This document shows, piece after piece, positions 1,831-38,423 of a stretch of 41,412 nucleotides of DNA. Made by a program: the position numbers and the translations under genes. The DNA is from Alteromonas naphthalenivorans (GTDB lineage Bacteria; Babelota; Babeliae; Babelales; CAIQNR01): assembly GCA_047631715.1 (NCBI GenBank), contig JBLICC010000002.1, forward strand, positions 1 to 41,412. The letters are read 5' to 3'. Position 1 is the first letter of the stretch. The number at the start of each line of letters is the position of its first letter. Below the pieces are notes generated by a model. That model searched no databases, was not told the origin of the DNA, and saw nothing but the letters and a program-made list of their open reading frames with translations.

Positions 1831-2745
1831 CTATGGTCTAAATGCGATTTTTATTGCTTTGCCCCAAACCTGACGCGGGAACTTAATTTCTTCTAAAGCT
1901 TCTTGTACTGCAACATCATAAATAACAATATCCGACAATGTAATAACTTTGCTTTCTATCAATTTTCCATCCCAACCAACAGTTACTTGCACCTCACTTG
2001 TTACATCTTGATGTACTCCAATAGGTGGCTCCCATACTTCTTGTACAGCTGCCTGTAACACACTTTCTAACTCTATACCTCTGAGTTCTTTATGCGTTAC
2101 ATAACGTACGTTTTCTTCTACTTGCTCTATAACAGGATCAAGTTCTTTTATATCCGAGTTACCCTGATCTAATACGGGTTTTTTATTAAGTTCATCCCGA
2201 GTGGATGCGAGTTTATGAGCATTTGTATCGAGGGACTCAGCTGTCTTCTCTTCTTGTTTTGCGACTTGCTCTACGGGCTTAACTACAGGCTTTGGTTCTT
2301 CTTTTTTTTCTATTATTTTTTTTTGCTCTTGCTTGATTATCTTCTCTACTGGTTTAACTACTGGCTTTGGTTTTATTGCTTCAACAACTTTCTTTGCTAT
2401 TACAGGCTTAGGTTTAGGTTTTAGCACAACTTTCTTAACCTGTGCCAACTGAGTAACTTGTTTTTTTTGTACTATTTTTTTTGCCTGTTTTCTAACACTT
2501 ACTCCACCACTTTTTGTAATACGTTTTAAAGCTTTAAGTTTTTTAGCAGACAATGGTAATAACCGCACAATAACATTATCTGGATTATGTTTTGCATGTA
2601 CTTTTAGCAACAAATCGTGTTGGTAATCCTTGTACATAAAAAACAAACCAAAACAAAGTATTGCGTGCGTTAATACCGAAAGAATAGAAAGCTTAAAAAG
2701 AAAAGAATGTTTCTTAGGTAATCTTTGCTGTAGCCAAAGCAACAT
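1831..2745 (-). CDS. tolA: TolA/TonB-like envelope-spanning protein (TM anchor, Lys/Pro/Glu-rich spacer, TonB_C-like C-terminal domain)
   Basis: N-terminal TM helix (FLFKLSILSVLTHAILCFGLFFMY), then a long KPKP/KPV/EEK low-complexity spacer and a compact C-terminal domain. Its position after tolQ and tolR supports the call. I prefer the start at ATG 2745 (GGGAG RBS 6 nt upstream) over the track start at 2763. Confidence 0.7.
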   Translation of the reverse strand: MLLWLQQRLPKKHSFLFKLSILSVLTHAILCFGLFFMYKDYQHDLLLKVHAKHNPDNVIVRLLPLSAKKLKALKRITKSGGVSVRKQAKKIVQKKQVTQLAQVKKVVLKPKPKPVIAKKVVEAIKPKPVVKPVEKIIKQEQKKIIEKKEEPKPVVKPVEQVAKQEEKTAESLDTNAHKLASTRDELNKKPVLDQGNSDIKELDPVIEQVEENVRYVTHKELRGIELESVLQAAVQEVWEPPIGVHQDVTSEVQVTVGWDGKLIESKVITLSDIVIYDVAVQEALEEIKFPRQVWGKAIKIAFRP

Positions 2746-7592: not shown

Positions 7593-9392
7593 ATGAGAAA
7601 AAATCTTTATCTTTTATTCGCATTGCTCATTCCCGCTGCTGTTCAACCTTATACTATAAGCTCTGAGCAGAAAGAGATCAATCCGACAGAAACAGAAATT
7701 ACACTACATGTTAATCTTAACCCTTATGAACATATTTACGAAAAGCATATCACCCTTTCTAGCGACAATCCCCATGTTAAACTAAGCAAATGGAAAACTG
7801 ATCATTCTTCAAAAGACAATTACGATAAACGTCTTAAAACTACCTGTAAATCTTTTGGCGAAAATTTTTGTATCAACTCAGTTGTTACGAGAACAACACC
7901 AGAAGCAGTACATGCAAAATTACATGTAACACTTGCTTCTAACCAATCTCCTAATCCAAAAGAACAAACATTTGATCTAAAATTTAAACAATCAAAAGAA
8001 GCAGTAAAAGAAACACCTTCAAAACCACTTGAAATTATTAAAGAGAAAAAAACTACAAAAGTACCATCTAAAGAAGGTGCTACTTTTATGGAAGTTATCA
8101 AAGAGTATCGAGAACAACTTAAGCACACTATTGCTCATACAGATTCTTGGTCTTTACGCCTTCTGGTAGCATTCCTACTTGGATTATTACTCAGTTTAAC
8201 ACCTTGTATTTACCCTATGATTCCTATTACCGTTGGAATTTTACAATCACAAGGTAGCAAATCTATTTTACGTAACTTTTTACTTTCTTGCTGCTATGCA
8301 CTTGGTTTAGGAACAACATTTTCTATCATGGGATTAATCGCTGCAAGTTCTGGCGATGCCTTTGGATCATTAATGGTTAATCCCATTTTTGTAATATGTA
8401 TTGTAACGTTCTTACTCTATTTTGCAGGATCTCTTTTTGGTTTTTATAACCTTTATATTCCACGATTTATGCAAAACAAAACCGATGTATCTAAATCTGG
8501 ATCTGCACTTTCTATCTTTATCTTTGGGCTTGCAAGTGGATCGGTTGCATCACCCTGCTTGTCTCCTGGGCTTGCATTGATTTTGACCATGGTTGCAACA
8601 ATGTCTAGCAAGATACTTGGATTCTTACTTCTCTTTGTTTTTGGTATTGGTATTAGTACTCCACTTATTATTATTGGAACATTTTCTGGTTCTATTAACT
8701 TATTGCCACGCGCCGGCATGTGGATGTTAGAAATTCAAAAAGTATTCGGATTCATGTTAATCGGCATGTGCTTTTATTACTTAAGCAATGTTTTACCGTG
8801 GTATGTAATATTAATTGGTCTTACCTGTTTTACTGCAATTATTGGTTATTATTATTTCTCTTCTGCCCACAAAACAACTGGCCTAAGTAACAAGATCCAA
8901 AACATGATTGGTGTAGTAGCATTAATTATTACGGTTTTCTTATGCATCGAATCGTTCCAAGAAATGTACTATCCACAACTAAATAATGCTTTTGAAAAAA
9001 CCTGGATGACTGATTACAACAAAGCAGTTACCACCGCGCAAAAAGAAGACAAAATGTTGTTCATTGATTTTTGGACACCGTACTGTTCTATTTGCAAAGC
9101 AATTACTGCAACCATCTTAAAGAATCCAAAAGTAACTCAAGTACTTAAAGATAAGTATGTAATTTTATCTGTTGATGCATCTGATTCTTCTGTAGAGCCA
9201 TACAAATCACTTAAGTCTCGTTATGACACTTGGGGTGCACCTAATTTGCTTGTGGTTGACCCTAACGATGGCAAAGAACTTAAACGCTGGCAGAGCGAAA
9301 TGTATGATATGGAAATTGATGATGTTGTTAAAGCACTTAACTTATATAGTGCAAATACTGACAGCAAAGGATTACTAGGTATTTTACCGTAG
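7593..9392 (+). CDS. dsbD: Thiol:disulfide interchange protein DsbD (three-domain: N-terminal periplasmic, TM core, C-terminal thioredoxin)
   Basis: 599 aa with a signal peptide. The N-terminal domain has a CKSFGENFC Cys pair. The polytopic core carries both conserved Cys-Pro motifs (LTPCIYPMIP, SPCLSPGLA). The C-terminal thioredoxin fold has the CxxC motif (WTPYCSICK). Confidence 0.85.
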   Translation: MRKNLYLLFALLIPAAVQPYTISSEQKEINPTETEITLHVNLNPYEHIYEKHITLSSDNPHVKLSKWKTDHSSKDNYDKRLKTTCKSFGENFCINSVVTRTTPEAVHAKLHVTLASNQSPNPKEQTFDLKFKQSKEAVKETPSKPLEIIKEKKTTKVPSKEGATFMEVIKEYREQLKHTIAHTDSWSLRLLVAFLLGLLLSLTPCIYPMIPITVGILQSQGSKSILRNFLLSCCYALGLGTTFSIMGLIAASSGDAFGSLMVNPIFVICIVTFLLYFAGSLFGFYNLYIPRFMQNKTDVSKSGSALSIFIFGLASGSVASPCLSPGLALILTMVATMSSKILGFLLLFVFGIGISTPLIIIGTFSGSINLLPRAGMWMLEIQKVFGFMLIGMCFYYLSNVLPWYVILIGLTCFTAIIGYYYFSSAHKTTGLSNKIQNMIGVVALIITVFLCIESFQEMYYPQLNNAFEKTWMTDYNKAVTTAQKEDKMLFIDFWTPYCSICKAITATILKNPKVTQVLKDKYVILSVDASDSSVEPYKSLKSRYDTWGAPNLLVVDPNDGKELKRWQSEMYDMEIDDVVKALNLYSANTDSKGLLGILP

Positions 9393-9405
9393 TTTTGTAA
9401 AGCGT

Positions 9406-9691
9406 CTCTCGACCCTTCGATACAATTTCTAACGAAATCACTCAGGGTGACTCGATTTTGTGAGTCATACTGAGTGATTTTTTTGTGAAAAGTATAATAG
9501 AGAACGAATTACATACATTCGATACAAATACTCACTAAAGTTCGTATTCACTCAGTATGATTCGATTTTGTTCATCTCGAGTTATCCAAAGATCGAATCA
9601 CCCTGAGTGATTTTGAGTGTAACGAAAAATCTTGAATCATCCTGAGTAATTCCGTTAGGAATTGTATCGAAGGATCGAATGGGTCGAGGGA
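9406..9691. repeat. Composite of nested inverted copies of a ~40-45 nt palindromic repeat family (arms TCAyCCyGAGTG ... TGTATCGArGG)
   Basis: Outer inverted pair: 9408..9457 (reverse orientation) against 9636..9690 (forward). Inner perfect inverted pairs: 9436..9450 AATCACTCAGGGTGA against 9598..9612 TCACCCTGAGTGATT, and 9464..9476 TCATACTGAGTGA against 9549..9561 TCACTCAGTATGA. A further reverse-oriented full copy lies at about 9517..9565. The composite fills the convergent dsbD/hpf intergenic region. Confidence 0.85.
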
Positions 9692-9712: not shown

Positions 9713-10048
9713 CTAGAAACTATCTTTCGGCGTACCTGGATGATTCCGTTTATCAAGTGCCTTGCCTTTATGCTTCTTTAGCTCTTTACCCATAACTTTA
9801 ACGACATGATCAATCTCTTGGTACAAATCTTTGCCTTCTCGACTTGCCATCAAATGAAGGTTCTTTCCATTCAATCTCAACTCAACCTTATGATGCGTAT
9901 TGTTATGATCAGCCTGAAGAACTAAATCAATATAAAGAGGCTCAAGATCTTGGTTCAAATATTTAGTAAGTTTTTCTAGCTCTTTGTTTGCATATTTTTC
10001 AGCTAAATCTGAATGATCCATTCCACGGAACGCTATTCTGATGTTCAT
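9713..10048 (-). CDS. hpf: Ribosome hibernation promoting factor / RaiA family (short form)
   Basis: 111 aa. MNIRIAFRGMDHSDLAEKYANKELEKLTKYL...VELRLNGKNLHLMASREGKDLYQEIDHVVKVMGKELKKHKGK aligns along its length with the HPF/YfiA pattern (I.G....T.AL.....K..KL..Y...V.L........A...V.G..IHA.AEG.DMY.AID...DKL..QL.KHK.K). Confidence 0.8.
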   Translation of the reverse strand: MNIRIAFRGMDHSDLAEKYANKELEKLTKYLNQDLEPLYIDLVLQADHNNTHHKVELRLNGKNLHLMASREGKDLYQEIDHVVKVMGKELKKHKGKALDKRNHPGTPKDSF

Positions 10049-10228: not shown

Positions 10229-10588
10229 ATGAAAAAGTTATTAATGATCGCAATGTGTTTAGTGTCAACATCTACAATACCAAAAAAAGTTTCAGATAGA
10301 GAACTAAAACAGTGGGAAAATACAGCAAAAAACTATGGAATTAGTGTAAAACATTCTGTTTCTTATTTAGATTCTGGAGATAATGTTGTAAGAGTACGTA
10401 GTATAGATAATACTCCTGTTTCCACTGTTAAGCCTGTCTTAAGCGCAGCAGGAAAAAAAGTAGCTAAAGTTGAAACAGTTTATCGAATCCAACCAATACG
10501 CACAGGTAATGGTAGTTATACAGTAAAGACAAACGGACAAACACAAACAATATATTTCTACGCGCAAGCTGCAGGACACCAAAAATAA
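10229..10588 (+). CDS. Hypothetical exported protein (one copy of a beta-rich module shared with the next gene)
   Basis: 119 aa with a hydrophobic leader MKKLLMIAMCLVSTS. The RBS and leader are nearly identical at DNA level to those of the next gene (10218..10255 against 10625..10662, 1 mismatch). I recognise no family. Confidence 0.55.
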   Translation: MKKLLMIAMCLVSTSTIPKKVSDRELKQWENTAKNYGISVKHSVSYLDSGDNVVRVRSIDNTPVSTVKPVLSAAGKKVAKVETVYRIQPIRTGNGSYTVKTNGQTQTIYFYAQAAGHQK

Positions 10589-10635: not shown

Positions 10636-11679
10636 ATGAAAAAGTTAATAATGATCGCAATGCTCGTGGCAATAGGAAACCAAGTTGAAGCGAGTCAGGA
10701 TTTGGGCGGTTTAAAGGCCAGTGGAAAACCACCAAAAACAGCTATTATTTCCAGAGTAGAAATTCCACAATATATAAATTATGGAGTAAGTATTAGTAGC
10801 ATAAATGCTAAAATATCTTCTAAAAAAGATCAATTAAATAATATACGCCCTATAGTTAATGCAACACAACCCGGAATTGTTACGGTAAAAACAACTACCT
10901 ATTATAATTTTTCAACTTCAGTACCGTATGTTAAAGTAGTTCCATTAAGCACAGGGACATCATCAAAAACTCCTGTAAATTTTTATGTAAAACAATCTTA
11001 TTCTGTAGGCAATGGTGTATCCAAAATTATTAACAGAACAAACAAAGCTAACGCTACTATTACCAAGAATATGATTAAAGCAACAAAAACTGGACCTGTC
11101 ACAGTAGAAACAACTACCTATTATAACTTCATAGCTGCACCACTTAATCAAGTATTCAGGAATCCTTTAATTAGAAACAGCTCCCGAATAACCCTGCCCA
11201 CTTATATAGATGTTAAACTTAGTAAAGCTGACAAAAAACGTTTTACAATTACTAACAATAATAATGGTTCAAGTACCTACGTTCCTACTGCTCAAATGGG
11301 AACAGTCAATGTAAGCCTTAGATATAATAAAAATATAAATATTAAAGATAAAAATATTAAAGATAAAAATTGGCAGAAATTCCCCGTAAATATAACTTGT
11401 GAGTATGGTTCATGCGCACGTTATCCAATGAAGATTGTTAGAAATAAATCTACTGACTGTATTAATTTCTATTTTAAACTTCAAGAAAATGATGTTTTTA
11501 GTAACCCACGTATTGCTACTTTAAATGTAAAGAAGAATACGATATTAGGTAAACAAGTAGGTTCAGGCTTCATACACAATACAAAAATTCCTAAAGGTCA
11601 GGAAGCTAATAGAGCTTATAGTAAACACTATTTTGAAATAGTTAATTCACCAAAAGAGAAATCTACAAAAAGAAAATAG
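10636..11679 (+). CDS. Hypothetical exported repeat-module protein
   Basis: 347 aa with signal peptide MKKLIMIAMLVAIGNQVEA. An internal duplicated module is present (ATQPGIVTVKTTTYYNFSTS / ATKTGPVTVETTTYYNFIAA). There is a 2 x 15-bp tandem at 11341..11370 (IKDKN IKDKN). No family recognised. Confidence 0.6.
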   Translation: MKKLIMIAMLVAIGNQVEASQDLGGLKASGKPPKTAIISRVEIPQYINYGVSISSINAKISSKKDQLNNIRPIVNATQPGIVTVKTTTYYNFSTSVPYVKVVPLSTGTSSKTPVNFYVKQSYSVGNGVSKIINRTNKANATITKNMIKATKTGPVTVETTTYYNFIAAPLNQVFRNPLIRNSSRITLPTYIDVKLSKADKKRFTITNNNNGSSTYVPTAQMGTVNVSLRYNKNINIKDKNIKDKNWQKFPVNITCEYGSCARYPMKIVRNKSTDCINFYFKLQENDVFSNPRIATLNVKKNTILGKQVGSGFIHNTKIPKGQEANRAYSKHYFEIVNSPKEKSTKRK

Positions 11680-11694
11680 TCAATATATAGAAAA

Positions 11695-11727
11695 GAAAAA
11701 AGCCTCGGGGATTCGAGGCTTTTTTTA
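11695..11727. terminator. Bidirectional intrinsic terminator between convergent genes
   Basis: AAAAAA-GCCTCGgggatTCGAGGC-TTTTTTT (hairpin 11701..11720). Confidence 0.75.
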
Positions 11728-11754: not shown

Positions 11755-12090
11755 TTATAAACTATCTTCAGAAGCATCTGGATTATTTTGTTGATCAAGA
11801 ACTTTTTCATTATGCTTGCGCAACTCTTTGATCATAACTTTAACAACATGATCAGTTTCTCTATATAAATCTGTACCTTTTACAGCAACTATTAAATGAA
11901 AATCTTGCCCATGAAGCTGTAACTCAACTGTGTAAGATTTCTGCTGCTTATCTGGTTGAAAAACAAGATCAAAATAAACAATTTCGTCTTCTGCAGGCAA
12001 AAATTTATTAATCTTTTTAAGTTCTTTATTTGCATATTTTTCTAAATCATCTGAATGATCAATACCAAGAAATACTATTTTAATACTCAT
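11755..12090 (-). CDS. hpf: Ribosome hibernation promoting factor / RaiA family, second paralogue
   Basis: Read from ATG 12090: MSIKIVFLGIDHSDDLEKYANKELKKINKFL...VELQLHGQDFHLIVAVKGTDLYRETDHVVKVMIKELRKHNEK. It is collinear with the 9713..10048 product and about half the residues are identical by eye. The upstream extension in the track (start 12126) is unlikely to be translated. Confidence 0.75.
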   Translation of the reverse strand: MSIKIVFLGIDHSDDLEKYANKELKKINKFLPAEDEIVYFDLVFQPDKQQKSYTVELQLHGQDFHLIVAVKGTDLYRETDHVVKVMIKELRKHNEKVLDQQNNPDASEDSL

Positions 12091-12112
12091 CGAATCGCCT
12101 ATGCATGAAGAC

Positions 12113-12146
12113 AAAAAAAGCCTCAAGTTACTGAGGCTTTTTTTTA
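12113..12146. terminator. Intrinsic terminator after der (A-run and T-run on both sides)
   Basis: AAAAAAA-GCCTCAagttacTGAGGC-TTTTTTTT immediately downstream of the der stop (12151) on the minus strand. Confidence 0.7.
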
Positions 12147-12150
12147 TAAA

Positions 12151-13467
12151 TTAAAAGATCATTTTTCGTAATGCAAACTTAATCGGTACACTCTTAAGAT
12201 CGAATTGCTTACGCATCACGTTCTCAAAAAAGCCTAACTGACTTTCTCCAAACCATTCTGTATGGTTAACATTCAAACGAATGATTGGAGGCGCAGTTGC
12301 AACCTGTTGAACAGAATGCAATTTAAGTCGCTGTCTATTTTTAAACAGTGGCTTTTCGTCTAATCCACCTTTGCAAGTCATAGTAAGCTGTGTAGTAGAA
12401 AAATGGGTGTTGTAACGATCCCATACTTTTCTAATCAACGGCATAATTTTGCCTACGTTGTGTCTTGTTTTACACGAAATAGTCATCATCTCTAATTTTT
12501 TAAGTAAGTAATCGTAAGGCTCTGATTCAAATTCCCATTGGGTTTGTTTTGTATCGTCAATAAGATCGTGCTTGTTACGCAAAATAATAAGCGCTTTACC
12601 TTCTTGAAACACATACCCAGCCAATTTGAGTTCTTGTTGAGAAAGCTCAGCTTCTTCGCCATCAATAAGCAATAATACAATGTCTGCATCGCGTACGGCA
12701 GCAAAAGAACTTTTTACCATCAACTCTTCGATTGTTTCATCTACCGAACGTTTTCTACGTACACCGGCAGTGTCTGTTACCTGAATAGTTTCTCTATAAA
12801 ACTTTATATGATCGGTAATTGCTTCTCGTGTGGTACCTGGCATATCAGCAACCAATGAACGTTGCTTATCTAGCAACAGATTGGTTAACGATGATTTACC
12901 CACATTTGGCTTACCAAGTAGTACAATCTTAAATTCTGGCTTCTCGTCTTTTTCAGATGATTCAGAAGGCAAAAGACGTAAAATTTCTTCTAGCAATTCT
13001 GCAGTACCTGTTCCATGCTGTCCAGAAATCTCAAGAACATTTTTATGCCCAAGACGATGAAAATCAAGAATATTTTCTTGTGTTTTTTTAGTGTCAATTT
13101 TATTGATTGCAAGAATAGTTGGCTTATTAAGTTTATGAACAAATTTAGCCAAAGCTTGATCTTCAGATGTTACTCCAACTTTACCATCTACTACAAAGAT
13201 CACCACGTCGGACGATTCTAATACTTCAATGGCACGTTCACGTACCGCTTCTGTTAAGTAATCAAGACCCTTTTTAAAATCAATACCACCGGTATCAATA
13301 ATTTCAAAAGTTCGGCCTTGCCAATCAACAGAATCGAATACAAAGTCACGTGTTACACCTTCATAATCCAATGTCATGCTTTTAACTGATTTAGACAATC
13401 TATTAAACAACGTTGATTTTCCAACGTTTGTTCTTCCAATAATAACTACTTTGTTACGCTTTTTCAT
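12151..13467 (-). CDS. der: Ribosome-biogenesis GTPase Der (EngA), double G-domain plus KH-like C-terminus
   Basis: Two P-loops (GRTNVGKSTLFN, GKPNVGKSSLTN), two DTGG/DTAG motifs and two NKxD motifs (NKID, NKHD). ATG 13467 is preceded by GAGGGGGA. The start overlaps the dnaX stop by 14 nt. Confidence 0.9.
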   Translation of the reverse strand: MKKRNKVVIIGRTNVGKSTLFNRLSKSVKSMTLDYEGVTRDFVFDSVDWQGRTFEIIDTGGIDFKKGLDYLTEAVRERAIEVLESSDVVIFVVDGKVGVTSEDQALAKFVHKLNKPTILAINKIDTKKTQENILDFHRLGHKNVLEISGQHGTGTAELLEEILRLLPSESSEKDEKPEFKIVLLGKPNVGKSSLTNLLLDKQRSLVADMPGTTREAITDHIKFYRETIQVTDTAGVRRKRSVDETIEELMVKSSFAAVRDADIVLLLIDGEEAELSQQELKLAGYVFQEGKALIILRNKHDLIDDTKQTQWEFESEPYDYLLKKLEMMTISCKTRHNVGKIMPLIRKVWDRYNTHFSTTQLTMTCKGGLDEKPLFKNRQRLKLHSVQQVATAPPIIRLNVNHTEWFGESQLGFFENVMRKQFDLKSVPIKFALRKMIF

Positions 13468-15169
13468 GTTCCCCCTCAACTTCTACAACGGTGCCACCAA
13501 AGGCATCTACTAATTTATTTGCTGTTTTCCATTTATCTTTATCTGTTACATTAACTACTATCGTTTTTTTTATTTTTGGACGCACAAACTTATTTGGCGA
13601 CCCTGCTGCTTGCGGCTTAGCAATTACTTTACCTGCACTACTCGAAACAGACCCTTTTTTAAAATCATCCTGAGTGGTTCCGTTAGGAATTGTATCGAAG
13701 GATCGAGAGTTTTTCTCTACAACCGGTTTAGGCGCCGCACTTTTTTCGAACACCGGTTTAAATTGCACATCTGGACCAAATGATTCTTGTAAGAAACCCA
13801 TCCATGTACTTTTTGTTTCTTTTAACCAGTCTCCAAAAAATGTAGTGTCTTTAGCAAAAGCAACTACCAACTCATTTGTTTGTTCATCATAACTTTTAAA
13901 CTGTGCTTGTTTAAAAATAGAATTTAAAAGTGGTTCGCTCATTTGCTCAACTTTTACAACAAACCCACTCCATCTATTATCTTGTTTACTACTAACTGGT
14001 GCTACTGTAACTGGTTTAGGAGGTACAGTTTTTTTTTGAACCGTAACTGCTACAACTGGCTCTGTTGCATTTTCGGTACCACACATACCAAGTAACATCA
14101 TATCAAGAACACCCTGCTGTGCTGTTGTTTTAAGTAGCAACATTTCGGTGCTATACACTTTTTGTAACCATCCAGTTAACTGTTCTAAAGAACATTTACG
14201 TGCAAATGCAGCAACACGTTCTTTATCTTCGATTGTAACTTGCCGTGCAACACCATATTTTACATACAAAATATTGCGAATTACTTCTTGTAACTTTTGC
14301 CACACTGCCAACGGAGTATAACTATTTACTTTTTTTTCTTGTAAGAAAACTAATAACTGCCCCGGATCACCCGCTATAATCTGTGTAAACAGATCTAATA
14401 AAATTGGTTCAGGTACATGACCAAGTACTCTAAGAACCGCATCTTTAGATACTTTTGCATGAGAAAATCGTACTTGCTCTAACAAGTTAAGCGCGTCTCG
14501 TGCAGAGCCTTCTGTTTCTTGAATAATAGTTTTGAGTGCATTTTCTTCTACACGAATATTTTCTGCTGTGCACACTGCTTGCAAATGCTTAAGCAATGGC
14601 TCAAGACTAATTGCAGGAAAGAACAACTGAAAACAACGAGACCGTACTGTTTCTATAATTTTTTGTGGATCAGTAGTTGCTAACATAAATACTACTGATG
14701 CTGGAGGTTCTTCTAAAATTTTTAAAAAGGCATTAAATGCTGCCTTGCTCAACATATGTGCTTCATCAATAAGATATAAACGCTTGGTTCCCATAACAGG
14801 CAAAAGCGAAGCCGCATCAATAATTTGGCGGACATTATCTACACCGGTATGCGATGCTGCATCAATCTCTATAAAATCTGGATGGCTCCCTGCTGCTATT
14901 GCTTTGCACGACTCACAGTTTAAACATGGAATTTTATGCGATTTAGGATCTTTCCTAAAGGCATCAAGTTCAGCACAATTAAGCGCAGCTGCAAAGATAC
15001 GAGCAGTGGTTGTTTTACCACATCCTCGTTGACCAGAGAATAGATAGACAGGAAAAATCTGATCGAGGTATAAGCTATTTTGTAACATGCGAATAGACAA
15101 ATCTTGCCCAATCACTTGATCGAACTGCTTAGAACGCCATTTACGAGCGAGATTGAGCTGTGTTGCCAT
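13454..15169 (-). CDS. dnaX: DNA polymerase III subunit tau (gamma/tau), DnaX
   Basis: AAA+ clamp-loader motifs: FSGQRGCGKTTTARIFA, the Zn module CLNCESCKAI, DEAHML and the sensor-1 region. I prefer the start at ATG 15169 (MATQLNLARKWRSKQFDQVIGQ) over the TTG at 15253. The C-terminal variable region contains an in-frame repeat copy and an A9 run (see findings). Confidence 0.9.
   Translation of the reverse strand: MATQLNLARKWRSKQFDQVIGQDLSIRMLQNSLYLDQIFPVYLFSGQRGCGKTTTARIFAAALNCAELDAFRKDPKSHKIPCLNCESCKAIAAGSHPDFIEIDAASHTGVDNVRQIIDAASLLPVMGTKRLYLIDEAHMLSKAAFNAFLKILEEPPASVVFMLATTDPQKIIETVRSRCFQLFFPAISLEPLLKHLQAVCTAENIRVEENALKTIIQETEGSARDALNLLEQVRFSHAKVSKDAVLRVLGHVPEPILLDLFTQIIAGDPGQLLVFLQEKKVNSYTPLAVWQKLQEVIRNILYVKYGVARQVTIEDKERVAAFARKCSLEQLTGWLQKVYSTEMLLLKTTAQQGVLDMMLLGMCGTENATEPVVAVTVQKKTVPPKPVTVAPVSSKQDNRWSGFVVKVEQMSEPLLNSIFKQAQFKSYDEQTNELVVAFAKDTTFFGDWLKETKSTWMGFLQESFGPDVQFKPVFEKSAAPKPVVEKNSRSFDTIPNGTTQDDFKKGSVSSSAGKVIAKPQAAGSPNKFVRPKIKKTIVVNVTDKDKWKTANKLVDAFGGTVVEVEGEHEKA
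13664..13708. repeat. Single copy of the palindromic repeat family, located inside the dnaX reading frame
   Basis: ATCATCCTGAGTGGTTCCGTTAGGAATTGTATCGAAGGATCGAGAG is about 90% identical to the copies at 9636.. and 30628... On the minus strand it is translated as ...SRSFDTIPNGTTQDD... within the intact DnaX ORF. Confidence 0.85.
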
Positions 15170-15323
15170 GCCATACTTTCTAGATTTATACCCACTAAAA
15201 TTTAACTCTTTTAGTGTACCCGAGATACCCACTTGCCGCAACACAGGCTCCAAATCTAAGCTTAAATTTATTTAATAACGTTTTATCGGTAATTTATCGG
15301 CAAAATAATTTTTATTACAATAG

Positions 15324-15462: not shown

Positions 15463-16413
15463 TTATTTCTTTGGAGCAGCTTCTTTTTTAGGAGCAGCCT
15501 CAGTAGCTTTTGCAACAGGTTTTGCTTCTGTAGCTTTTTTAGGAGCAACAGCAGGTTTATCTGCAACTTTTGCTTCTACTTTTTTAGGAGCAGCAGCAGG
15601 CTTTACAGGAGCAACTTTTTTAGCAGCGGCAGCTTTAATGTCTGCAGCTCTTTTAGCAGCTACTTCTTTTCTTTCTGCTTTTTTCTTTTCTTGTAAAAGC
15701 TCGAATTCTTTTTCTTCTTCAGCTTTTTTATCTTTTGCAAGAGCAACACCACGTTCTGCAGCTTCTACTAGATAATCAATGATAATGCGAATAGATTTTG
15801 GAGAATCATCATTTGCAGGAATCACGTGATCAATTCCAAGTGGATCTGAGTTAGTATCGATTAATGCAATAACTGGAATACCCATGCATTTAGCTTCTTT
15901 AATTGCAGATGCTTCTTTACGAACATCAACAACTATAATAGCTCCAACTGGCCAGTTAAGCTTTACAATACCACCAATATTTTTTTCTAGACGATCAACA
16001 CTTTTTTGAAAAACGTTAAATTCTTTTTTAGTGTAATGACCACGATCTGATTTTGAAATCACATCTTTAAGATGCAAATACTTTGTTACAGATTTTTTTA
16101 CTTGAGAGTTATTAGTAAGTGTTCCACCAATCCAACGATGTGTAACATAAGGCATAGAAACAGTACCAGCTGCTGCTTTCATGATCTCTTGTGCAGGTTT
16201 TTTAGTACCAATCCACATAACTGTTTTGCCTTCACCAATTATGCTTTCTACAAATTTTGAAGCTTTTTCTAATTGATAAGCAGTTTTTGCAACATTAATT
16301 AAATGAACTCTATTTTTTTGTCCCCAAATATAAGGAGCCATGCGCGGACACCAACGAGAAGATTGATGACCAAAATGTACACCAGCTTTAACTAAATCTC
16401 TAAAATCTATCAT
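15463..16413 (-). CDS. rpsB: 30S ribosomal protein S2 with a ~90-aa Lys/Ala/Pro-rich C-terminal extension
   Basis: From ATG 16413: MIDFRDLVKAGVHFGHQSSRWCPRMAPYIWG..., the canonical S2 N-terminus and core. The tail is KDKKAEEEKE...AAAAKKVAPVKPAAAPKKVEAKVADKPAVAPKKATEAKPVAKATEAAPKKEAAPKK. The GTG start at 16446 in the track is less likely. Confidence 0.9.
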   Translation of the reverse strand: MIDFRDLVKAGVHFGHQSSRWCPRMAPYIWGQKNRVHLINVAKTAYQLEKASKFVESIIGEGKTVMWIGTKKPAQEIMKAAAGTVSMPYVTHRWIGGTLTNNSQVKKSVTKYLHLKDVISKSDRGHYTKKEFNVFQKSVDRLEKNIGGIVKLNWPVGAIIVVDVRKEASAIKEAKCMGIPVIALIDTNSDPLGIDHVIPANDDSPKSIRIIIDYLVEAAERGVALAKDKKAEEEKEFELLQEKKKAERKEVAAKRAADIKAAAAKKVAPVKPAAAPKKVEAKVADKPAVAPKKATEAKPVAKATEAAPKKEAAPKK

Positions 16414-16551
16414 TGAAAATACCTTTTGCAGGGTTTTATCTATCACTTCTCGGCCAGCAATTTAAGCTTGGCCACCCTGATTGAGAGAGTGAGTGTTTGT
16501 AAACAAAATACTCGAATAAGCGTACCAGATCATGAATTTTTTGCAATATTC

Positions 16552-17961
16552 CTAATCAGATACCTCATCTGATCCAATCACCTCTCCATCCTTAATAGCT
16601 TTTTCGAATCGTTTTCCTAAGAAGAAGGCAACTCCAGACCATAGCACAACAATGCCAGTAAAGAAGATACCATGCACATTGCTGGTAACAGCTCCACCCA
16701 CACTTTTTGCTAAGATATTAAAGCTTGAGCCTGCTCCACGAGCTAATTTTTTACCAAACGTATCGATCCATGATTTTGATTTAAACTTCATATCTTTTAC
16801 GGTTGGAATATAAAGCGCTTCGGTTACCGGCTGATTAAATGCATAGTAAATAGCTCTGAGAGCTACAAATGCTATTATTAATGCTCCAGGAGACGGACTT
16901 AGCATCAAATATATAAGCAACGTCCCCATCACCACAGGCATTACCATAAGTGACAAACGTTCTCCTAAATAAGAGATAAGCACACGTGTTCCAAACAAAG
17001 AAATAACAAACCCTATAAAATGCGTATAAAAAACAACTTTAAACAAGAAACAACTTACTCCAGAAATGCTTCCACCTGCATCTTGAGCAATGCCCAAACG
17101 CATGTAGCTTAAAATAGCACTCAATACTTCGTAAAAGAAAACAGTACAAAAAATACCAAAAGCATAGGGATAACGTAGTAGTATCATTAGACCACTAAAA
17201 ATACCTGTTTCTTTTGTTCCTGATTTACTCTGTTTTTTTTCAAATTTATATGCAGCTTCATACCCATGCAAATATTGCCCAGGGACAGTCTTCATCATCA
17301 TATTAATAATAAAGGGAACTGCTAATAAAATTATAGATGATATAACAATTAAAAGTGCATGCAAACGTGTTTCATTTAACCCTACTGAATGACATTGACC
17401 TGAATGAGACAGCAAAAACCATGCTAATCCTGCAGACAGCATGCCGCCCAGCTTTGATATAGAAATAAGAATACCATAATTCTTTTTTGCAGAATCAGGA
17501 GTAGACACTGAGTTTAAGAATGCCCAGAACACGCCCACTACAAAGGATGAAAAGCTCTCGATATAAAAATAGTAAAACCAACCAAAGAACCAATAAGCAC
17601 TATATGGTTTAACTACTTCTGTACCAAGCCCACCATAACTAATAATAATGGCACAGAAAAAACCGAGAATACTATATACCCAAGCACAATAAGAAAGCAA
17701 CTGATAACGACGAACAGTATCAACTAACTTGGCATATAAAAGAACCAATGGAATAAGACCAAAAATCATGAATAATTTAGCATAAGGAATCGCTTCTTTT
17801 CCACCTACGATATTCATGAAGATAGAGTCTTTCAACTCTTTGATAATTGTATAGGAAGAAATAATTGCAAAAAAAGCAGCACTCAAAAAGAAAATCTTTA
17901 ATCGCTCTTTTTCTTCAATTTCCCACAAAGCTCTAAATGTTTGCATAAAACCTATGCGCAT
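16552..17961 (-). CDS. TLC/NTT-family nucleotide transporter (ATP/ADP-translocase family), paralogue 1
   Basis: 469 aa and polytopic. Family motifs: FWAFLNSVSTPDSAKKNYG and LYIPTVKDMKFKSKSWIDTFGKKLARGAGS (compare the Rickettsia/Chlamydia Tlc/Npt pattern LYIP...KYKAK..ID..G.R.GK). AAGGAT RBS. Confidence 0.8.
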   Translation of the reverse strand: MRIGFMQTFRALWEIEEKERLKIFFLSAAFFAIISSYTIIKELKDSIFMNIVGGKEAIPYAKLFMIFGLIPLVLLYAKLVDTVRRYQLLSYCAWVYSILGFFCAIIISYGGLGTEVVKPYSAYWFFGWFYYFYIESFSSFVVGVFWAFLNSVSTPDSAKKNYGILISISKLGGMLSAGLAWFLLSHSGQCHSVGLNETRLHALLIVISSIILLAVPFIINMMMKTVPGQYLHGYEAAYKFEKKQSKSGTKETGIFSGLMILLRYPYAFGIFCTVFFYEVLSAILSYMRLGIAQDAGGSISGVSCFLFKVVFYTHFIGFVISLFGTRVLISYLGERLSLMVMPVVMGTLLIYLMLSPSPGALIIAFVALRAIYYAFNQPVTEALYIPTVKDMKFKSKSWIDTFGKKLARGAGSSFNILAKSVGGAVTSNVHGIFFTGIVVLWSGVAFFLGKRFEKAIKDGEVIGSDEVSD

Positions 17962-18001
17962 CTTAATCCTTTATAGATTTATAACAACTCACATACTACA
18001 A

Positions 18002-18032
18002 CAAAAAAAGCCCTCTAGAAGACTAGAAGGCT
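18002..18032 (-). terminator. Intrinsic terminator after NTT paralogue 2
   Basis: Minus strand: AGCCTTCTAGtcttCTAGAGGGCT followed by TTTTTTT. Confidence 0.6.
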
Positions 18033-18103
18033 AAAATTTTATACGTCACGTATATTGGACGCTCTAAGCGATTTTTTATTATTTTTATATATGTCGTTCT
18101 TTC

Positions 18104-19435
18104 TCAACATATCTGACGATCCTCTTCAATTGCTTTTTTGTGCATATCTGCCACAAATAAAGCTGAAACTATCCACACCCCTACAAGTCCCAGGCAAATA
18201 CCTGAGCTTACCACTACAAAGAACGATTGTAGCATAGGACGGAGCATATGAACAGAGGAACCCACACTTTTTGACAACCTAGAACCAAAACTATCTATCC
18301 AAGCTTTAGCTTTATACTTAGATTCTCGTGTTGTAGGAATATATAATTGCTCTTTAGCCGGCTGATTTAACGCGTAATTAAGCCCTTTTATAGTGACAAC
18401 AACCGTAAGAGCTACCCATAGCTCTGGCATCCACCACACAGCCAATACACCTGCACCCATAAGCATAGGTAGAAGCAATAATGTACGTGATAAGCCCAAT
18501 GCTCTTCCAATGGCTCCTGCACCTAATAATAAACTTATAAGCGCTACACCATTAGCACATATTGCATATTTAAAGAAAAACTCTTGCATAGCTGCACCAT
18601 TGTCTAGCACTTCTGCCGCAAGAATCTTCATATGCAGTTCAAGAACCGTTCCTACAATTTCGTATAAACTAACAATCGCTACAATACCAAGTAAATATGG
18701 TTGAGAAAAAATAAGTTTAATACCTTCAAAAAAACTAGGTGATGATTTTTTGTATGCAGCAGTTTTTTTATCTGAATGAAACCCTACCAATTCAGACTTT
18801 GGAGTCATTTTCATAAAATGATAAATTAAATATCCAATAATCAACATTCCAAGTGCCCCCATCCTAATAATAGGAATCGGACCAAAAGAGTTACTCATAG
18901 TATAACCAAGTAGCGGTCCAAGTACTCCACCAAACTGAGCACCCATTGCGATAATACCAAACCCTTGCTTTGCAGAATCGGGCGTAGATGTATCAGCAAC
19001 AAATGACCAAAACAATGCAACAATAAGTGAGCCAAAACTTTCTACAAACGCATACCAAAGCCATCCTATTGTACGACCTCCATGCGCCACTGTATTTGGC
19101 AACCCGATAAAAGGGTCAGACAACGCGTACGCAAATAATAATGCACCTACTGCATACACAGAACAGATCACATAAAACATTCTGTGACGGGCAAACATAT
19201 CTACCAATTTACCATAGAGCATAAGCAACGGAAATAGAAAACAAAGAGAAAATACTTTTGCATACGCAAGCCATTGCTTGCCAACAACATGTATAAAGAC
19301 GGTGTCTTTGAGTGGATTGATTAACCAGTAGACACCAATAGTAAAAGCAAAGATGAGTGCGAGTCGTATAAACTTCAAACACTCATCTTTGCTTTTGAAT
19401 TTTCCCCACAATATTTGAGCGAGGGATTGTAACAT
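18104..19435 (-). CDS. TLC/NTT-family nucleotide transporter, paralogue 2
   Basis: 443 aa. Motifs FWSFVADTSTPDSAKQGFG and LYIPTTRESKYKAKAWIDSFGSRLSKSVGS. Closest in-window relative is paralogue 4 (shared C-terminal ...KAIE.DR..C). Confidence 0.8.
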   Translation of the reverse strand: MLQSLAQILWGKFKSKDECLKFIRLALIFAFTIGVYWLINPLKDTVFIHVVGKQWLAYAKVFSLCFLFPLLMLYGKLVDMFARHRMFYVICSVYAVGALLFAYALSDPFIGLPNTVAHGGRTIGWLWYAFVESFGSLIVALFWSFVADTSTPDSAKQGFGIIAMGAQFGGVLGPLLGYTMSNSFGPIPIIRMGALGMLIIGYLIYHFMKMTPKSELVGFHSDKKTAAYKKSSPSFFEGIKLIFSQPYLLGIVAIVSLYEIVGTVLELHMKILAAEVLDNGAAMQEFFFKYAICANGVALISLLLGAGAIGRALGLSRTLLLLPMLMGAGVLAVWWMPELWVALTVVVTIKGLNYALNQPAKEQLYIPTTRESKYKAKAWIDSFGSRLSKSVGSSVHMLRPMLQSFFVVVSSGICLGLVGVWIVSALFVADMHKKAIEEDRQIC

Positions 19436-19604
19436 GGATGGTTCCTTATAAAAAAGTTACTCTGTCCATGTTACTGTACCACGTTTACTTAAAAAGAATA
19501 TCTCTAAAAGTTTTTTATTTTTTTCAAAAAAAAAGAGCCATTCCAAGTGGGTCAATATTTAGACCATCACAATAGAATGACTCAATTAGTATTTGTATAC
19601 TATT

Positions 19605-21005
19605 TTACTCGATGATTTCGCCGTCACGAACTAGTTGTGCATTTTTAATACCAACGTATATAGCAACTAACAGCCATACACAAATAACACCAAGACTAAT
19701 TAAGGTACCTGTTGTCATTAAACCTGCAATACTTGCTGCAACATTACCAGAAACAATTAATGCTCCACCAATATTTGCACCAGCCATTTTACCTGCACGG
19801 CCACCAACCATATCAACAAGACCTTTTGCTTTAAACTTAGCGTCTTTTGAAGTTGGAATGTACATCATTTCTTTTACAGGATTATTAACAGCATAAGAAA
19901 CAGCTGTAACAATCATCATTGCTCCAAAAGTTGCCCAGAAAAGATTTTCTGCTGTTGGACCAGTTAAGTAATAGAAGTAAATACCTGTTAAACATGCACC
20001 AAACATAATTGGATAGATTAACAAACAAACACGAAGACCATATTTTTTCATAGCATATGCTGTACCCAACAAAGCCATAAGCAATGAAAGTGAGTTTACA
20101 CACATTCCAAAGATACCTAAGAAACGAGCAAACTCAGCTTTAGGCATAATAACAGATGCTTGATATTTCATTTGCATATCAACAACAACTTTTGCTACTT
20201 CATAAAAAGTTGAAACTACAAATACACCCATTAAGTATGGTTGTGTTACAAGAAGTTTAAAACCTGCAAGTACATCTGGTTTACTTTTTTTCTTCTCTAC
20301 TTTACCACTGGTCATTTCTGAAGCTGGAACAGATTTCATCAAACTTTTAATAGTAAAAATCAAACCACAGATTCCCGCGATTGCAATAAAATACAATGGC
20401 CATGTTGGAAAGTTACCTTTGAAATACATTACTGAAGAAGCTGATATTGCACCAATTTGACCCAATACAATAACAAATGGAAAACCACGTTTTGCTTGAT
20501 CACTTGTTGCACTACTTACCGTGAATGACCAAAAAACAGCCATCATTAAAGAACCAAATGCTTCTGTTGCTAAGTACCCTAAAGAACCAGCAGCACCCAA
20601 TAGCATAGGACCAAATGAAAATGCTTTAATAGCTTCCACACCCAATGTATCAGCACTACAAAGCATTAATGCTACAAATGCAAAAACAGATGCAAAGAAA
20701 GTACCAATAACATAAAATAATTGTTGTTTTTCAAACATATCAATTAATTTTGTATAAACAGCTAATGCACCCATCACAACAAATGGCGAAATTGTTTTAA
20801 GTTTTGCAACCATTGTTGCACCATAACCAATAGGCCAGCCAAATTCTTCTGAAAAAGCAATTTTGTAAATAACATCGTCTTTTACCAAACGCAATAACCA
20901 ATAAGTACCAGCAGTAAACAAAAATGCAACCGCCAAATGCGTAAACTTATTTAACTCTTCTTTTTTTAAATCAGGATAAAAATACTGAATAATACCACTA
21001 AACAT
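19605..21005 (-). CDS. TLC/NTT-family nucleotide transporter, paralogue 3
   Basis: 466 aa. Motifs FWSFTVSSATSDQAKRGFP and MYIPTSKDAKFKAKGLVDMVGGRAGKMAGA. AAGAGG RBS. Confidence 0.8.
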   Translation of the reverse strand: MFSGIIQYFYPDLKKEELNKFTHLAVAFLFTAGTYWLLRLVKDDVIYKIAFSEEFGWPIGYGATMVAKLKTISPFVVMGALAVYTKLIDMFEKQQLFYVIGTFFASVFAFVALMLCSADTLGVEAIKAFSFGPMLLGAAGSLGYLATEAFGSLMMAVFWSFTVSSATSDQAKRGFPFVIVLGQIGAISASSVMYFKGNFPTWPLYFIAIAGICGLIFTIKSLMKSVPASEMTSGKVEKKKSKPDVLAGFKLLVTQPYLMGVFVVSTFYEVAKVVVDMQMKYQASVIMPKAEFARFLGIFGMCVNSLSLLMALLGTAYAMKKYGLRVCLLIYPIMFGACLTGIYFYYLTGPTAENLFWATFGAMMIVTAVSYAVNNPVKEMMYIPTSKDAKFKAKGLVDMVGGRAGKMAGANIGGALIVSGNVAASIAGLMTTGTLISLGVICVWLLVAIYVGIKNAQLVRDGEIIE

Positions 21006-21107
21006 ATATATACCTCTTATGTTAACTAATTATAGTGAAAACCATTTCACCTTAAAATTTTCCATACTACACCCTTTGTTATCTTGGCCGAAAAACTCCT
21101 TTCTTAT

Positions 21108-22451
21108 CTAACACACAATGCGATCTTGCTCAATAGCCTTGGTGTGTTCTTTTCCTATAAATAAAGCAGCCCAAAACCATACAAGAATTAATGCTGCAGA
21201 AAGCCCAAGACTCATCATGGTAAACGTTGCAACTCCCAAGATTGGTCGTAAGGTGTTGATTCCAGATGCGGTACCTTTTGAAAGGCGTATACCAAACATA
21301 TCGATCCAAGCTTTTGCTTTATACTTAGTATCTTTTGATGTTGGAATATATAATTGCTCTTTTGCTGGTTGATTTAATGAGTAATTTATACTCTTACACG
21401 CTACCATTACCATAAACGCAACTCCTAAAACAGGATTCATGTTAACAATAATAGCAGACGCTCCTACCACAACAGGCAATAATAAGAGTGTACGAGCAAG
21501 CCCTAATCTACGAGCTATTCCTTTTGACCCTAATAATACACTAAACACAGCAACTATATTAATACAAATTGCGTATGTAGTAAAAAAGTTAGTTAATGCA
21601 TCACCAGTATATTCTGCCTTTGCAAGCCATTTAAATTGAAAATCTATCATAACAATAACAACTTCATAAAATGCCACCATGGTAAAAATACCAAGCACAT
21701 AAGGACGCGTTGCTACCAAATATAAACCATCTAGAAATCCAGTTCTTGTTTTTTTACCTTTTTCTAAAGCATTCTTGCTTCCATCAAATCCTTTAAGCTG
21801 ATCGCGTGGAGTTGTAAGCATAAAATAATACACACCTACTGGAATACAACAAATACCAACCACACACAAGAGAATAGCTGATCCAGAAGAACTCATATTA
21901 ATAATTATTTTCCCCATAAGAGGAATAATAACACCACCAGTTTGAGCTCCAAATACAATGAGAGAATACCCTCTACGAGCAGATTCAGGAGTAGTAGTAT
22001 CAGCAACAAATGACCAGAAAAGAGCCACCATGGTTGAACCAAAGCTTTCTACAAATAGGTAAAACACCCATCCTAAATAACGATGTGGATCTTCAACAGT
22101 ATTCGAAATGCCCATTTGAGGATCAAAAATAAAGAAGGCAAAACCAATTGAACATAAAGCATAAAAGCCCGAATAACCATATAAAAGCTTATGTCGTGGA
22201 TACTTATCAACTAAATATGAATATATCATCACTGCACATGCCGTAACCAAAATAGAGAGCATTTTTGCCCATGGTTGATATTCTCGACCCACCATAGTCA
22301 AGAAAATGCTGTCTTTAAGTGGCCTAAAGAGCCAATAGACTCCAATGGTAAGCCCAAAAAGAACTGCTAAAATAGAAAATTTCTTTTTTTCTTCCGGACT
22401 TTCAAAGCCGGTAAAAATAGAAGTAAAAAGACTCATAATACTGCTAGCCAC
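21108..22451 (-). CDS. TLC/NTT-family nucleotide transporter, paralogue 4
   Basis: 447 aa. Motifs FWSFVADTTTPESARRGYS and LYIPTSKDTKYKAKAWIDMFGIRLSKGTAS. The GTG start at 22451 is preceded by AAGAGGGG; an alternative ATG lies at 22436. Confidence 0.8.
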   Translation of the reverse strand: MASSIMSLFTSIFTGFESPEEKKKFSILAVLFGLTIGVYWLFRPLKDSIFLTMVGREYQPWAKMLSILVTACAVMIYSYLVDKYPRHKLLYGYSGFYALCSIGFAFFIFDPQMGISNTVEDPHRYLGWVFYLFVESFGSTMVALFWSFVADTTTPESARRGYSLIVFGAQTGGVIIPLMGKIIINMSSSGSAILLCVVGICCIPVGVYYFMLTTPRDQLKGFDGSKNALEKGKKTRTGFLDGLYLVATRPYVLGIFTMVAFYEVVIVMIDFQFKWLAKAEYTGDALTNFFTTYAICINIVAVFSVLLGSKGIARRLGLARTLLLLPVVVGASAIIVNMNPVLGVAFMVMVACKSINYSLNQPAKEQLYIPTSKDTKYKAKAWIDMFGIRLSKGTASGINTLRPILGVATFTMMSLGLSAALILVWFWAALFIGKEHTKAIEQDRIVC

Positions 22452-27794: not shown

Positions 27795-28076
27795 ATGAAG
27801 AAACTCATGATGGCCCTTGCGATGGTTGCGGTTTTGGTACTTCCAGGTTGCTGCTGCAAAAATAAAGCTCCAAAAGCAAAAGCATCTACACACAAAGTTA
27901 CACATAGTGCAAAACCTGCACATAAGGTAAAGAAGGATGATTCAAAGAAACACCACGACAAGAAAAAGCATGATGCAAAAAAGAAGCATGATGCAAAAAA
28001 GAAGCATGATGCAAAGAAAAAGAAAGCTAAACATGCACATGTAGCAATGGACAACGCTGAAGAACTGTTTGCATAA
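27795..28076 (+). CDS. Small His/Lys-rich lipoprotein with HDAKKK repeats
   Basis: 93 aa. Lipobox LVLPGC after a hydrophobic leader, (KKHDAK)x3, and an RBS-like AAAGGTAGAAA upstream. A hairpin terminator follows. I prefer it to the antisense ORF 27704..28054, whose product is FFFASC low-complexity mirror sequence. Confidence 0.6.
   Translation: MKKLMMALAMVAVLVLPGCCCKNKAPKAKASTHKVTHSAKPAHKVKKDDSKKHHDKKKHDAKKKHDAKKKHDAKKKKAKHAHVAMDNAEELFA
27968..28021. repeat. 3 x 18-bp tandem repeat inside the His/Lys-rich lipoprotein gene
   Basis: GCATGATGCAAAAAAGAA occurs twice exactly, followed by GCATGATGCAAAGAAAAA. It encodes the HDAKKK units. Confidence 0.85.
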
Positions 28077-30531: not shown

Positions 30532-30545
30532 ATTTTCTTTCTATT

Positions 30546-38381: not shown

Positions 38382-38423
38382 TTTAACCTCCATTAAAATA
38401 TCATATTTTTATAACTAAACTTA

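Follow-up and report, generated by a model that had tools for sequence, protein, structure and literature searches.

The dsbD/hpf spacer holds five copies of one repeat unit

The DNA analysed here is a 41,412-nucleotide stretch of contig JBLICC010000002.1 (referred to as the window), and it contains a cluster of palindromic repeats in the 320-bp spacer between the convergent genes dsbD and hpf. A first-pass annotation, made from the letters alone, had described this spacer as filled by at least five full or partial copies of one element, arranged as concentric inverted pairs. We built a covariance model of the unit (R1) and combined it with an inverted-repeat search. Together they recovered five full or partial copies (u1 to u5) at 9405-9690, in the orientations -,+,-,+,+.

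7593..9392 (+): dsbD, left flank of the spacer, with Pfam DsbD_TM and thioredoxin domains
9405..9456 (-): u1, full copy; R1 47.8 bits, E 9e-13
9459..9502 (+): u2, degenerate copy; R1 12 bits, E 0.12
9508..9564 (-): u3, diverged full copy of the stem type CATAC/GTATG; R1 23.3 bits, E 4e-5
about 9589..9630 (+): u4, truncated copy; partial R1 match at 9600-9630
9631..9690 (+): u5, full copy whose outer 3' stem contains an insertion of 9 nt, ATCGAATGG; R1 match 9631-9682, 39.6 bits
9713..10048 (-): hpf, for the ribosome hibernation factor, flanking the spacer on the right, with Pfam Ribosomal_S30AE

The canonical strand of u1 is the minus strand and reads GAGTCACCCTGAGTGA-TTTCGTTAGAAA-TTGTATCGAAGGGTCGA. 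Head-to-head with u1 lies u2, which has an intact 5' arm (GAGTCATACTGAGTGA) and a decayed 3' arm; the two copies form the inverted repeat I2, with 74% identity over 34 nt. A 13-mer in u3 is a perfect inverted match to u2. The annotation had recognised this innermost pair but placed it one base off, its true position being 9465-9477 and 9548-9560. The copy u4 retains its 5' arm (TCGAATCACCCTGAGTGA) and its hairpin (TTTTGAGTGTAACGAAAAA), with the start of u5 standing in place of the 3' arm, and it forms with u1 the inverted repeat I3 (25 nt at 92%). The middle pair of the annotation, 9436-9450 and 9598-9612, is indeed a perfect 15-mer, and the 9-nt indel that it reported for the outer pair corresponds to the insertion in u5, whose context is GAAGG[ATCGAATGG]GTCGAG. 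The repeat search further yielded the inverted pairs I1 (63 nt at 78%) and I7 (16 nt at 94%). At the u4/u5 junction, a 32-nt piece consisting of the 5' arm and the hairpin of another subtype precedes a shared 3' arm, which looks like the product of unequal recombination.

The inverted pairs were therefore recovered, but their concentric nesting is only one drawing of an array whose copies alternate in orientation, because every (-) copy forms an inverted repeat with every (+) copy. We describe the spacer as a cluster resembling a bacterial interspersed mosaic element (BIME), composed of two head-to-head doublets and a partial duplication. The proposal that the whole region could fold was borne out by its predicted energy of -113 kcal/mol (z = -10.1 vs shuffles).

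Unit architecture and folded strand

The canonical unit, (N)TCAY-CCYGAG-TGA-[variable hairpin]-TTGTA-TCGARGG-R, is a two-tier hairpin of 45-65 nt in its long form. It is made up of a brief 5' tag (NNTC-AY), a stem that covaries (CCY/RGG, in many cases longer) and a freely varying apical hairpin, and the stem encloses the constant internal-loop strings TGAGTGA and TTGTATCGAA. Both strings are near-invariant in a set of 147 distinct copies, a constancy that is partly fixed by the search pattern used to gather the loci. The TCAY tag is invariant among the model matches and reads CGTCA or TGTCA in Bacteroidota and metagenome loci and GCTCA in Dependentiae.

In the 147 copies, 89% of cells are paired, and the apical helix, with many compensatory changes, reaches 97.9%. 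Covariation is evident at the four pairs of the inner stem (e.g., U-A 98 vs C-G 47), and the three outer pairs are formed in only about half of the copies. Double-sided changes numbered 365, compared with 99 in shuffles, and sliding the structure by 1-3 columns as a control collapsed the pairing to 33-54%. Of the two strands, the canonical one gave the better fold in 104 of 125 copies, and G-T pairs exceeded A-C pairs (43 vs 19), indicating that one strand is the folded strand. Triloops make up half of the apical loops and mostly read C-(G/A)NA-G, a type characteristic of highly stable mini-hairpins of DNA, for example d(GCGAAGC). The orientation of the copies relative to neighbouring genes was unbiased (18 sense, 32 antisense, 18 convergent, 14 divergent and 27 genic), and no canonical terminator or U-tract was found between the convergent dsbD and hpf.

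Dispersed copies in the window

The R1 census of the window gave nine credible copies, five of which are those of the spacer, and one doubtful match. The matches outside the spacer are as follows.

2186..2243 (+): single copy in a TonB-like gene (1831-2763, -; Pfam TonB_2), antisense to the gene; R1 34.4 bits
13659..13710 (+): single copy in dnaX (13454-15253, -), antisense to the gene; R1 42.8 bits
30540..30592 (-): left half of a head-to-head doublet in the recJ / DJ-1/PfpI interval; R1 36.4 bits
30622..30673 (+): right half of the same doublet; R1 45.7 bits
40591..40630 (-): doubtful short form without the central hairpin, in an S41 peptidase gene; R1 17.7 bits

The annotation had named the arms and proposed a dispersed, hairpin-forming family with further copies at 13664, 30546 and 30628. 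All of these copies were confirmed, and the one at 2186-2243 had been missed. The arm pattern TCAYYCTGAGTRA, allowing at most one mismatch, occurs 7 times in the window vs 0.36 expected, a count that was not attained in any of 100 shuffles. Seven copies in the 41 kb are strong, and five of the window copies, with intact arms, score 36-48 R1 bits. The match at 40591-40630 has an E of 0.002 under a rough calibration and may be due to chance. In the source metagenome, the sequencing depth of the contig was about 13x in the flanks vs 180-230x at the repeat arms.

The copies in dnaX and in the TonB-like gene are both antisense, in frame and located in low-complexity linkers. The former is translated as SRSFDTIPNGTTQDD within the tau linker, and the latter as SLDTNAHKLASTRDEL within a Lys/Pro-rich linker. 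The 30540 copy carries the hairpin GCACCAAAGGTG.

Turnover among close relatives

By its DnaX homologues, the window's lineage is Dependentiae/Babeliales. Exact-sequence look-ups with three window proteins, intended to extend the window, gave no record. Two relatives, L194 and L196 (DnaX identity 77-78%), were compared with the window over 21-kb syntenic stretches each. The window is likewise syntenic with loci of OY968766.1, where the copies are at other positions. The dsbD/hpf spacer differs among the three genomes.

Window: five copies in 320 bp
L194: a doublet like u1/u2, decayed, in 108 bp
L196: a single clean doublet, head-to-head, in 154 bp

In L194, a decayed copy occupies the position equivalent to u1, and u2 aligns with GAGTCTCTCTGGGTA. 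In the L196 spacer, the (+) copy resembles u4, including its hairpin, and the (-) copy is near-identical to the window copy at 30540 and not to u1. The interval between a tRNA gene and a NUDIX gene contains a 165-bp doublet in L196 vs an empty site in L194.

The dnaX copy is shared by the window, L194 and L196 only and is absent from the next homologues (P0005-P0011). The three orthologous copies (window 13659-13710, L194 11456-11508, L196 11446-11499) have the same arms and unrelated apical hairpins (ATTCC..GGAAC vs ACGCC..GGC(T/A)TCC), and those of L194 and L196 are degenerate. Different apical hairpins at an orthologous site point to replacement or conversion of the copy and not to simple vertical decay. 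The differences at the spacer, the tRNA/NUDIX site and dnaX thus reveal a repeat that inserts, is replaced and decays over the timescale of species divergence, and that moved as a doublet at least once.

Distribution across genomes

The repeat is clearly not confined to this window or contig, a case that the annotation had raised, for example as an assembly artefact. Searching with both arms and a free gap, with one genome per species scanned, located the motif in at least 109 loci of many phyla, and R1 identified 172 copies in 100 of these loci. The carriers include Dependentiae/Babeliales, Cloacimonadota, Alphaproteobacteria, Myxococcota, Gemmatimonadota, Ignavibacteria and, among Bacteroidota, Schleiferiaceae, Owenweeksia, Lentimicrobiaceae and others. 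Among 2.9 million viral contigs there were only 2 motif matches. At L124 2139-2251, a complete inverted copy lies precisely within the apical loop that closes the central hairpin of a second copy, and the same true nesting is found in L005, L086 and L017. Because this arrangement recurs in unrelated genomes, it suggests that the hairpin loop itself is an insertion target.

Rfam returned only tRNAs for the window at the gathering threshold and nothing for five motif-rich loci at E<1, and a full-text literature search with the arm 12-mers gave no relevant match. A search for RNA sequencing runs containing the window or L031 gave none.

A GIY-YIG nuclease gene is the recurrent neighbour of the repeat

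To look for a partner gene, we clustered every open reading frame (ORF) in the motif-anchored loci. The sole specific recurrent family was a single-domain protein of 94-98 aa with the Pfam domain PF01541 (GIY-YIG). The other recurrent neighbours were generic: ABC ATPases, sensor kinases, AMP-binding enzymes, nitroreductases and secreted proteins. No tyrosine or other transposase family recurred among the roughly 800 ORFs adjoining the 172 copies, and the REP-associated tyrosine transposase (RAYT; REP, repetitive extragenic palindrome) that the annotation had suggested as a possible partner was near none of the copies. A tblastn search located nine GIY-YIG genes in eight motif-anchored loci. 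Each of the nine lies no more than about 300 bp from a copy, several have copies to either side, and repeat arrays flank the genes of L056 and L099. In the Dependentiae locus L041, the copy adjoining the GIY-YIG gene is identical to u4 at 17 of 19 bases.

The association held in the reverse direction. We collected 80 metagenome loci anchored on relatives of the GIY-YIG protein and searched them for the family hairpin, defined as TCA-N4-GAG...YCGA-N4' with complementary N4. The hairpin was present within 400 bp of the gene in 62 of the 80 loci, 35 of which were flanked on both sides, and its density was 3.3 per kb near the gene vs 0.21 per kb further away, a 16-fold difference. R1 matches likewise cluster close to the gene. 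Across the gene-anchored loci, the hairpins grade continuously from a short form of 37 nt (GTCAYCCTGAGC-GNA-GTCGAAGGRTGAC) into the long form of the window. In the named isolate Methylobacterium bullatum, a replicon of plasmid class has the order hairpin-gene-hairpin. The association is thus demonstrated in genomes other than that of the window.

A small single-domain GIY-YIG family, Ssn (cd10448), was named by Chenal et al. 2025 (PMC11893778). It binds hairpin repeats, namely the Neisseria NTS (CGTCATTCCCGCG...), NTSvar and a general 'SRM', and cuts single-stranded DNA (ssDNA) just upstream of the CGTCAT-tagged hairpin in a strand-specific manner, being inactive on double-stranded DNA and RNA (PMC11893778). 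The proteins associated with the present repeat match only GIY-YIG in Pfam and no NCBIfam family. A profile of their clade scored the M. bullatum protein at 113 bits, UPF0213-type proteins (BH0048 and a Legionella protein) at 74-78 bits, and classical SRM-flanked or L027-type proteins at 62-65 bits. Judging from these scores, the hairpin-associated nucleases appear to be a clade of their own, distinct from the classical SRM-flanked Ssn-type protein.

Several observations concern the sources of these genes. Most of the hairpin-linked homologues (P0121-P0240) are on contigs of only 0.5-3 kb, as would be expected if assemblies break at flanking multi-copy repeats. Some sources label the homologues 'tRNA/rRNA methyltransferase', probably a mis-annotation. 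At L041 7116-7187, the mechanical ORF of a second GIY-YIG gene begins upstream, in a short-form hairpin that reads 'VRPELVEG', and hairpins directly upstream of GIY-YIG genes can give rise to false N-terminal extensions in annotation.

Proposed mechanism and alternative explanations

The unbiased orientation, the antisense copies inside genes, the missing terminator signature and the triloop type lead us to read the element as acting at the DNA level, when single-stranded. With moderate confidence, we interpret the spacer as a BIME-like cluster of REP-type, strand-oriented DNA hairpins belonging to a superfamily of tagged hairpins that flank small Ssn-type GIY-YIG genes, and we propose a nuclease mechanism for it. 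The canonical strand would fold whenever the DNA becomes single-stranded during replication, repair or uptake. By analogy with Ssn, a cognate GIY-YIG nuclease of ~95 aa would bind the hairpin and its loops and would nick just 5' of the hairpin, near the TCAY tag. Nicking and recombination between copies would then drive spread, replacement and local amplification, mostly as doublets, and copies would be tolerated in intergenic DNA and in disordered protein linkers. The data show the repeat family with its structure and its occurrence across phyla, the link to GIY-YIG genes in both directions and the turnover among relatives. We infer that such a nuclease is encoded in the genome of the window, that it binds and cleaves the hairpins, and that ssDNA is the active form.

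A number of results weigh against this interpretation. No GIY-YIG gene is present in the 41-kb window or in the 2 x 21-kb syntenic stretches of the relatives, and the relatives' contigs hold none of the best 120 GIY-YIG homologues; homologues named Dependentiae do exist. The nuclease clade is nearer to UPF0213/YhbQ-type proteins (74-78 bits) than to the Sphingobium protein (62 bits), which has true SRM-pattern matches on both sides, and Ssn-like biochemistry is for this reason an extrapolation. The published SRM pattern, HGTCWYN(0-2)YYVSBRHN(0-5)WNVSBRGN(0-2)RNCYNB, has 0 matches in the window and fits neither the long nor the short form, whereas it does match NTS, the positive control. TCAY is retained by the window copies, but their tags (AATC, GCTC, GTTC, AGTC) are looser than CGTC, and the copies around nuclease genes are not uniform in orientation. 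Single units are weak by energy, with z from -0.1 to -1.5 under RNA or DNA parameters, so that the unit hairpin is supported by covariation, which is comparative evidence, and not by thermodynamic stability. Finally, neither target-site duplications nor defined ends were seen for the copies, and no transposition chemistry can therefore be assigned.

Some of the same evidence would fit a structured RNA element, that is, transcribed stem-loops in 3' untranslated regions that stabilise or terminate transcripts, or else a small RNA or a motif for protein binding, roles that have been suggested for many REPs. Strong covariation, conserved internal loops, a better folded canonical strand richer in G-U pairs, tandem G-A pairs in long apical helices and the position of the block between convergent genes without a canonical terminator all speak for such an element. 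We nevertheless consider it unlikely, since the copies have no preferred orientation relative to flanking genes, those in dnaX and the TonB-like gene are antisense to their genes, no Rfam family was hit at the gathering threshold or at E<1, no U-tract terminators were found, and the linkage is tight to a nuclease family whose characterised relatives ignore RNA (PMC11893778). A cis-regulatory RNA as the principal explanation was rejected because of the unbiased orientation and the lack of a terminator pattern. A ribozyme or k-turn (hammerhead-like CUGA...GAA) was also tried and discarded: the core does not fit, there is only a single hairpin, and Rfam is silent.

Other explanations retain the DNA level and replace or remove the nuclease. 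The copies could be decaying relics without a living partner in this genome, persisting only through homologous recombination and replication slippage between copies. The lack of a nuclease gene in the window and the relatives' stretches, the degenerate u2, u3, u4 and dnaX copies of L194 and L196, and the u4/u5 junction resembling unequal recombination would all be explained in this way. The search for the gene, however, covered only about 3% of the genome, five window copies keep intact arms at 36-48 bits, the differing apical hairpins at orthologous sites imply recent replacement, and a whole doublet present in L196 is absent in L194, which makes relics a rather improbable explanation. A classical REP or REPIN mobilised by a RAYT of the IS200/IS605 type is very unlikely. 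Its inverted doublets, clusters and intragenic copies would resemble what we see, and HUH enzymes likewise act on single-stranded hairpins (PMC11893778), but the GTAG tag is missing, no transposase family recurs among the neighbouring ORFs, and CGTC-type repeats are reported without RAYT linkage (PMC3733652). We give least weight to a MITE (miniature inverted-repeat transposable element) derived from a DDE-type insertion sequence, which we regard as highly implausible. A short dispersed element with inverted repeats that interrupts genes in frame is in keeping with it, whereas terminal inverted repeats beyond the hairpin and target-site duplications were not seen, no transposase is linked, and a sequence conserved in several phyla while its stem varies does not resemble a MITE.

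A variant of the nuclease explanation, which we put forward only tentatively, is a second, independent nuclease-hairpin partnership, in which a GIY-YIG clade between UPF0213/YhbQ and Ssn would recognise the two-tier ssDNA hairpin via its constant loops and mobilise doublets. If so, doublets would be mobilised in frame into genes and also into apical loops of existing copies, and the system would represent a REPIN-like mobile element driven by a GIY-YIG nuclease and active in six phyla or more. We know of no demonstration of such a GIY-YIG-driven mode of transposition.

Returning to the nuclease-associated tagged hairpin as the favoured explanation, its implications are several. The pairing of tiny GIY-YIG nucleases such as Ssn with their own genomic hairpins was described only in 2025, and our results widen it to a hairpin of different structure, another nuclease clade and additional phyla (Dependentiae, Bacteroidota and Cloacimonadota). 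Constant loops together with a freely varying apical helix make a defined recognition module, which could enlarge the repertoire of programmable enzymes that cut ssDNA site-specifically. How the CGTC-type REPs spread, given that they lack a transposase, is an old question, on which the filled and empty sites and the replaced copies bear. On the practical side, these repeats break metagenome assemblies and create spurious or extended ORFs.

Other features of the window

Four tandem paralogues of TLC-type ATP/ADP translocases (Pfam matches on the first and last) lie at 16552-22451 (-) and are also present in L194 and L196; such an array fits an energy-parasitic, host-dependent lifestyle. Two adjoining leucine-rich-repeat proteins, at 34970-37060 and 37092-38393 (-), contain periodic DNA repeats of 72 nt (24 aa) and are effector-like proteins typical of amoeba-associated bacteria.

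Next to the spacer, the hpf (S30AE) gene at 9713-10048 has a paralogue at 11755-12126, with 73% identity over 120 nt. The two bracket a pair of paralogous ORFs of unknown function with similar N-termini (10229-10588 and 10636-11679). Gene content varies in this region, with two adjacent hpf genes in L196 and one hpf plus an unknown 221-aa gene in L194. On either side of the second hpf, at 11696-11726 and 12113-12143, are near-identical perfect palindromes (AAAAAAGCCTCGGGGATTCGAGGCTTTTTTT) with A/T-run flanks, which look like bidirectional intrinsic terminators.

In rpsB (15463-16446, -), the segment 15463-15750 encodes a C-terminal extension of S2 made of repeated CTTTTTTAGGAGCAGC-type units, Ala/Lys/Pro-rich on the coding strand. 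At 27934-28026, an 18-nt tandem repeat (AAGAAGCATGATGCAAAA-like) lies in a short ORF without a Pfam match and encodes a Lys/His/Asp-rich repeat.

Comparison with described repeat systems

In-frame insertion into protein genes is reportedly also a property of the Rickettsia palindromic elements (RPEs), which Ogata et al. are said to have described in 2000 as lineage-specific inserts of 100-150 bp. The window repeat resembles them in being palindromic, in lying in frame in protein genes of a bacterium of the obligate intracellular type, and in being tolerated where the protein forms a surface or a linker. In contrast, its insert is about 45 nt long (15-16 aa) and the family spans phyla. With the REP/REPIN-RAYT systems and BIMEs, it shares inverted hairpin doublets and clusters, the doublet as the insertion unit and a presumed ssDNA hairpin substrate. 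Unlike them, it has no GTAG tag and no Y1 transposase, its partner being a GIY-YIG nuclease, and it is conserved across phyla whereas REPs are species-specific.

A closer likeness is to the CGTC-tagged REPs of Di Nocera et al. 2013 (PMC3733652). In that class the tag may also be TGTC or CCTC, head-to-head dimers predominate, some copies lie in replication genes, no transposase or RAYT is linked, and the class includes Neisseria dRS3 and Rickettsia RPE-4/RPE-6. The window repeat shares with it an unpaired tag of the CGTC/TGTC/CCTC type followed by A-T/C, the lack of a linked transposase, head-to-head doublets (30540/30622, u1/u2 and L196), copies inside coding regions and notably in replication genes (here dnaX), and a superfamily known from Bacteroidetes and intracellular bacteria. 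The four families described there are simple stems of 8-9 bp with loops of 4-5 nt, whereas the window unit is two-tier; as far as the text of PMC3733652 goes, the two-tier architecture, the TGAGTGA/TTGTATCGAA loops and Dependentiae are not among these four families.

The likeness to the Ssn/SRM system extends to the partner gene. In both, an oriented hairpin has a conserved 5' tag ending in TCAT/TCAC, many copies per genome are mainly intergenic, and the occurrence is enriched in host-associated bacteria. The ssn genes are repeat-flanked (NTS-ssnA-NTS), 71% with at least one copy and 42% on both sides (PMC11893778), compared with 78% and 44% for the ~95-aa GIY-YIG gene here. The SRM is a stem of 7-9 bp with a loop of 3-5 nt, whereas the window unit is two-tier with constant internal loops; the phyla here are Dependentiae, Bacteroidota and Cloacimonadota, and by its profile scores the nuclease clade appears distinct from the SRM-flanked protein.

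The annotation's view of an undescribed family is upheld insofar as Rfam, the literature search with the 12-mers and the SRM pattern all fail to account for it. The further step to a new kind of element is not, since the repeat bears hallmarks both of the CGTC/TGTC/CCTC-tagged REPs (PMC3733652) and of the Ssn-related hairpins (PMC11893778). The tagged-hairpin kind is already known, and what is undescribed is the two-tier architecture and the partner clade. The window repeat is thus a structural variant of the nuclease-associated hairpins represented by Ssn and the CGTC-tagged REPs, and not a wholly new kind of element.

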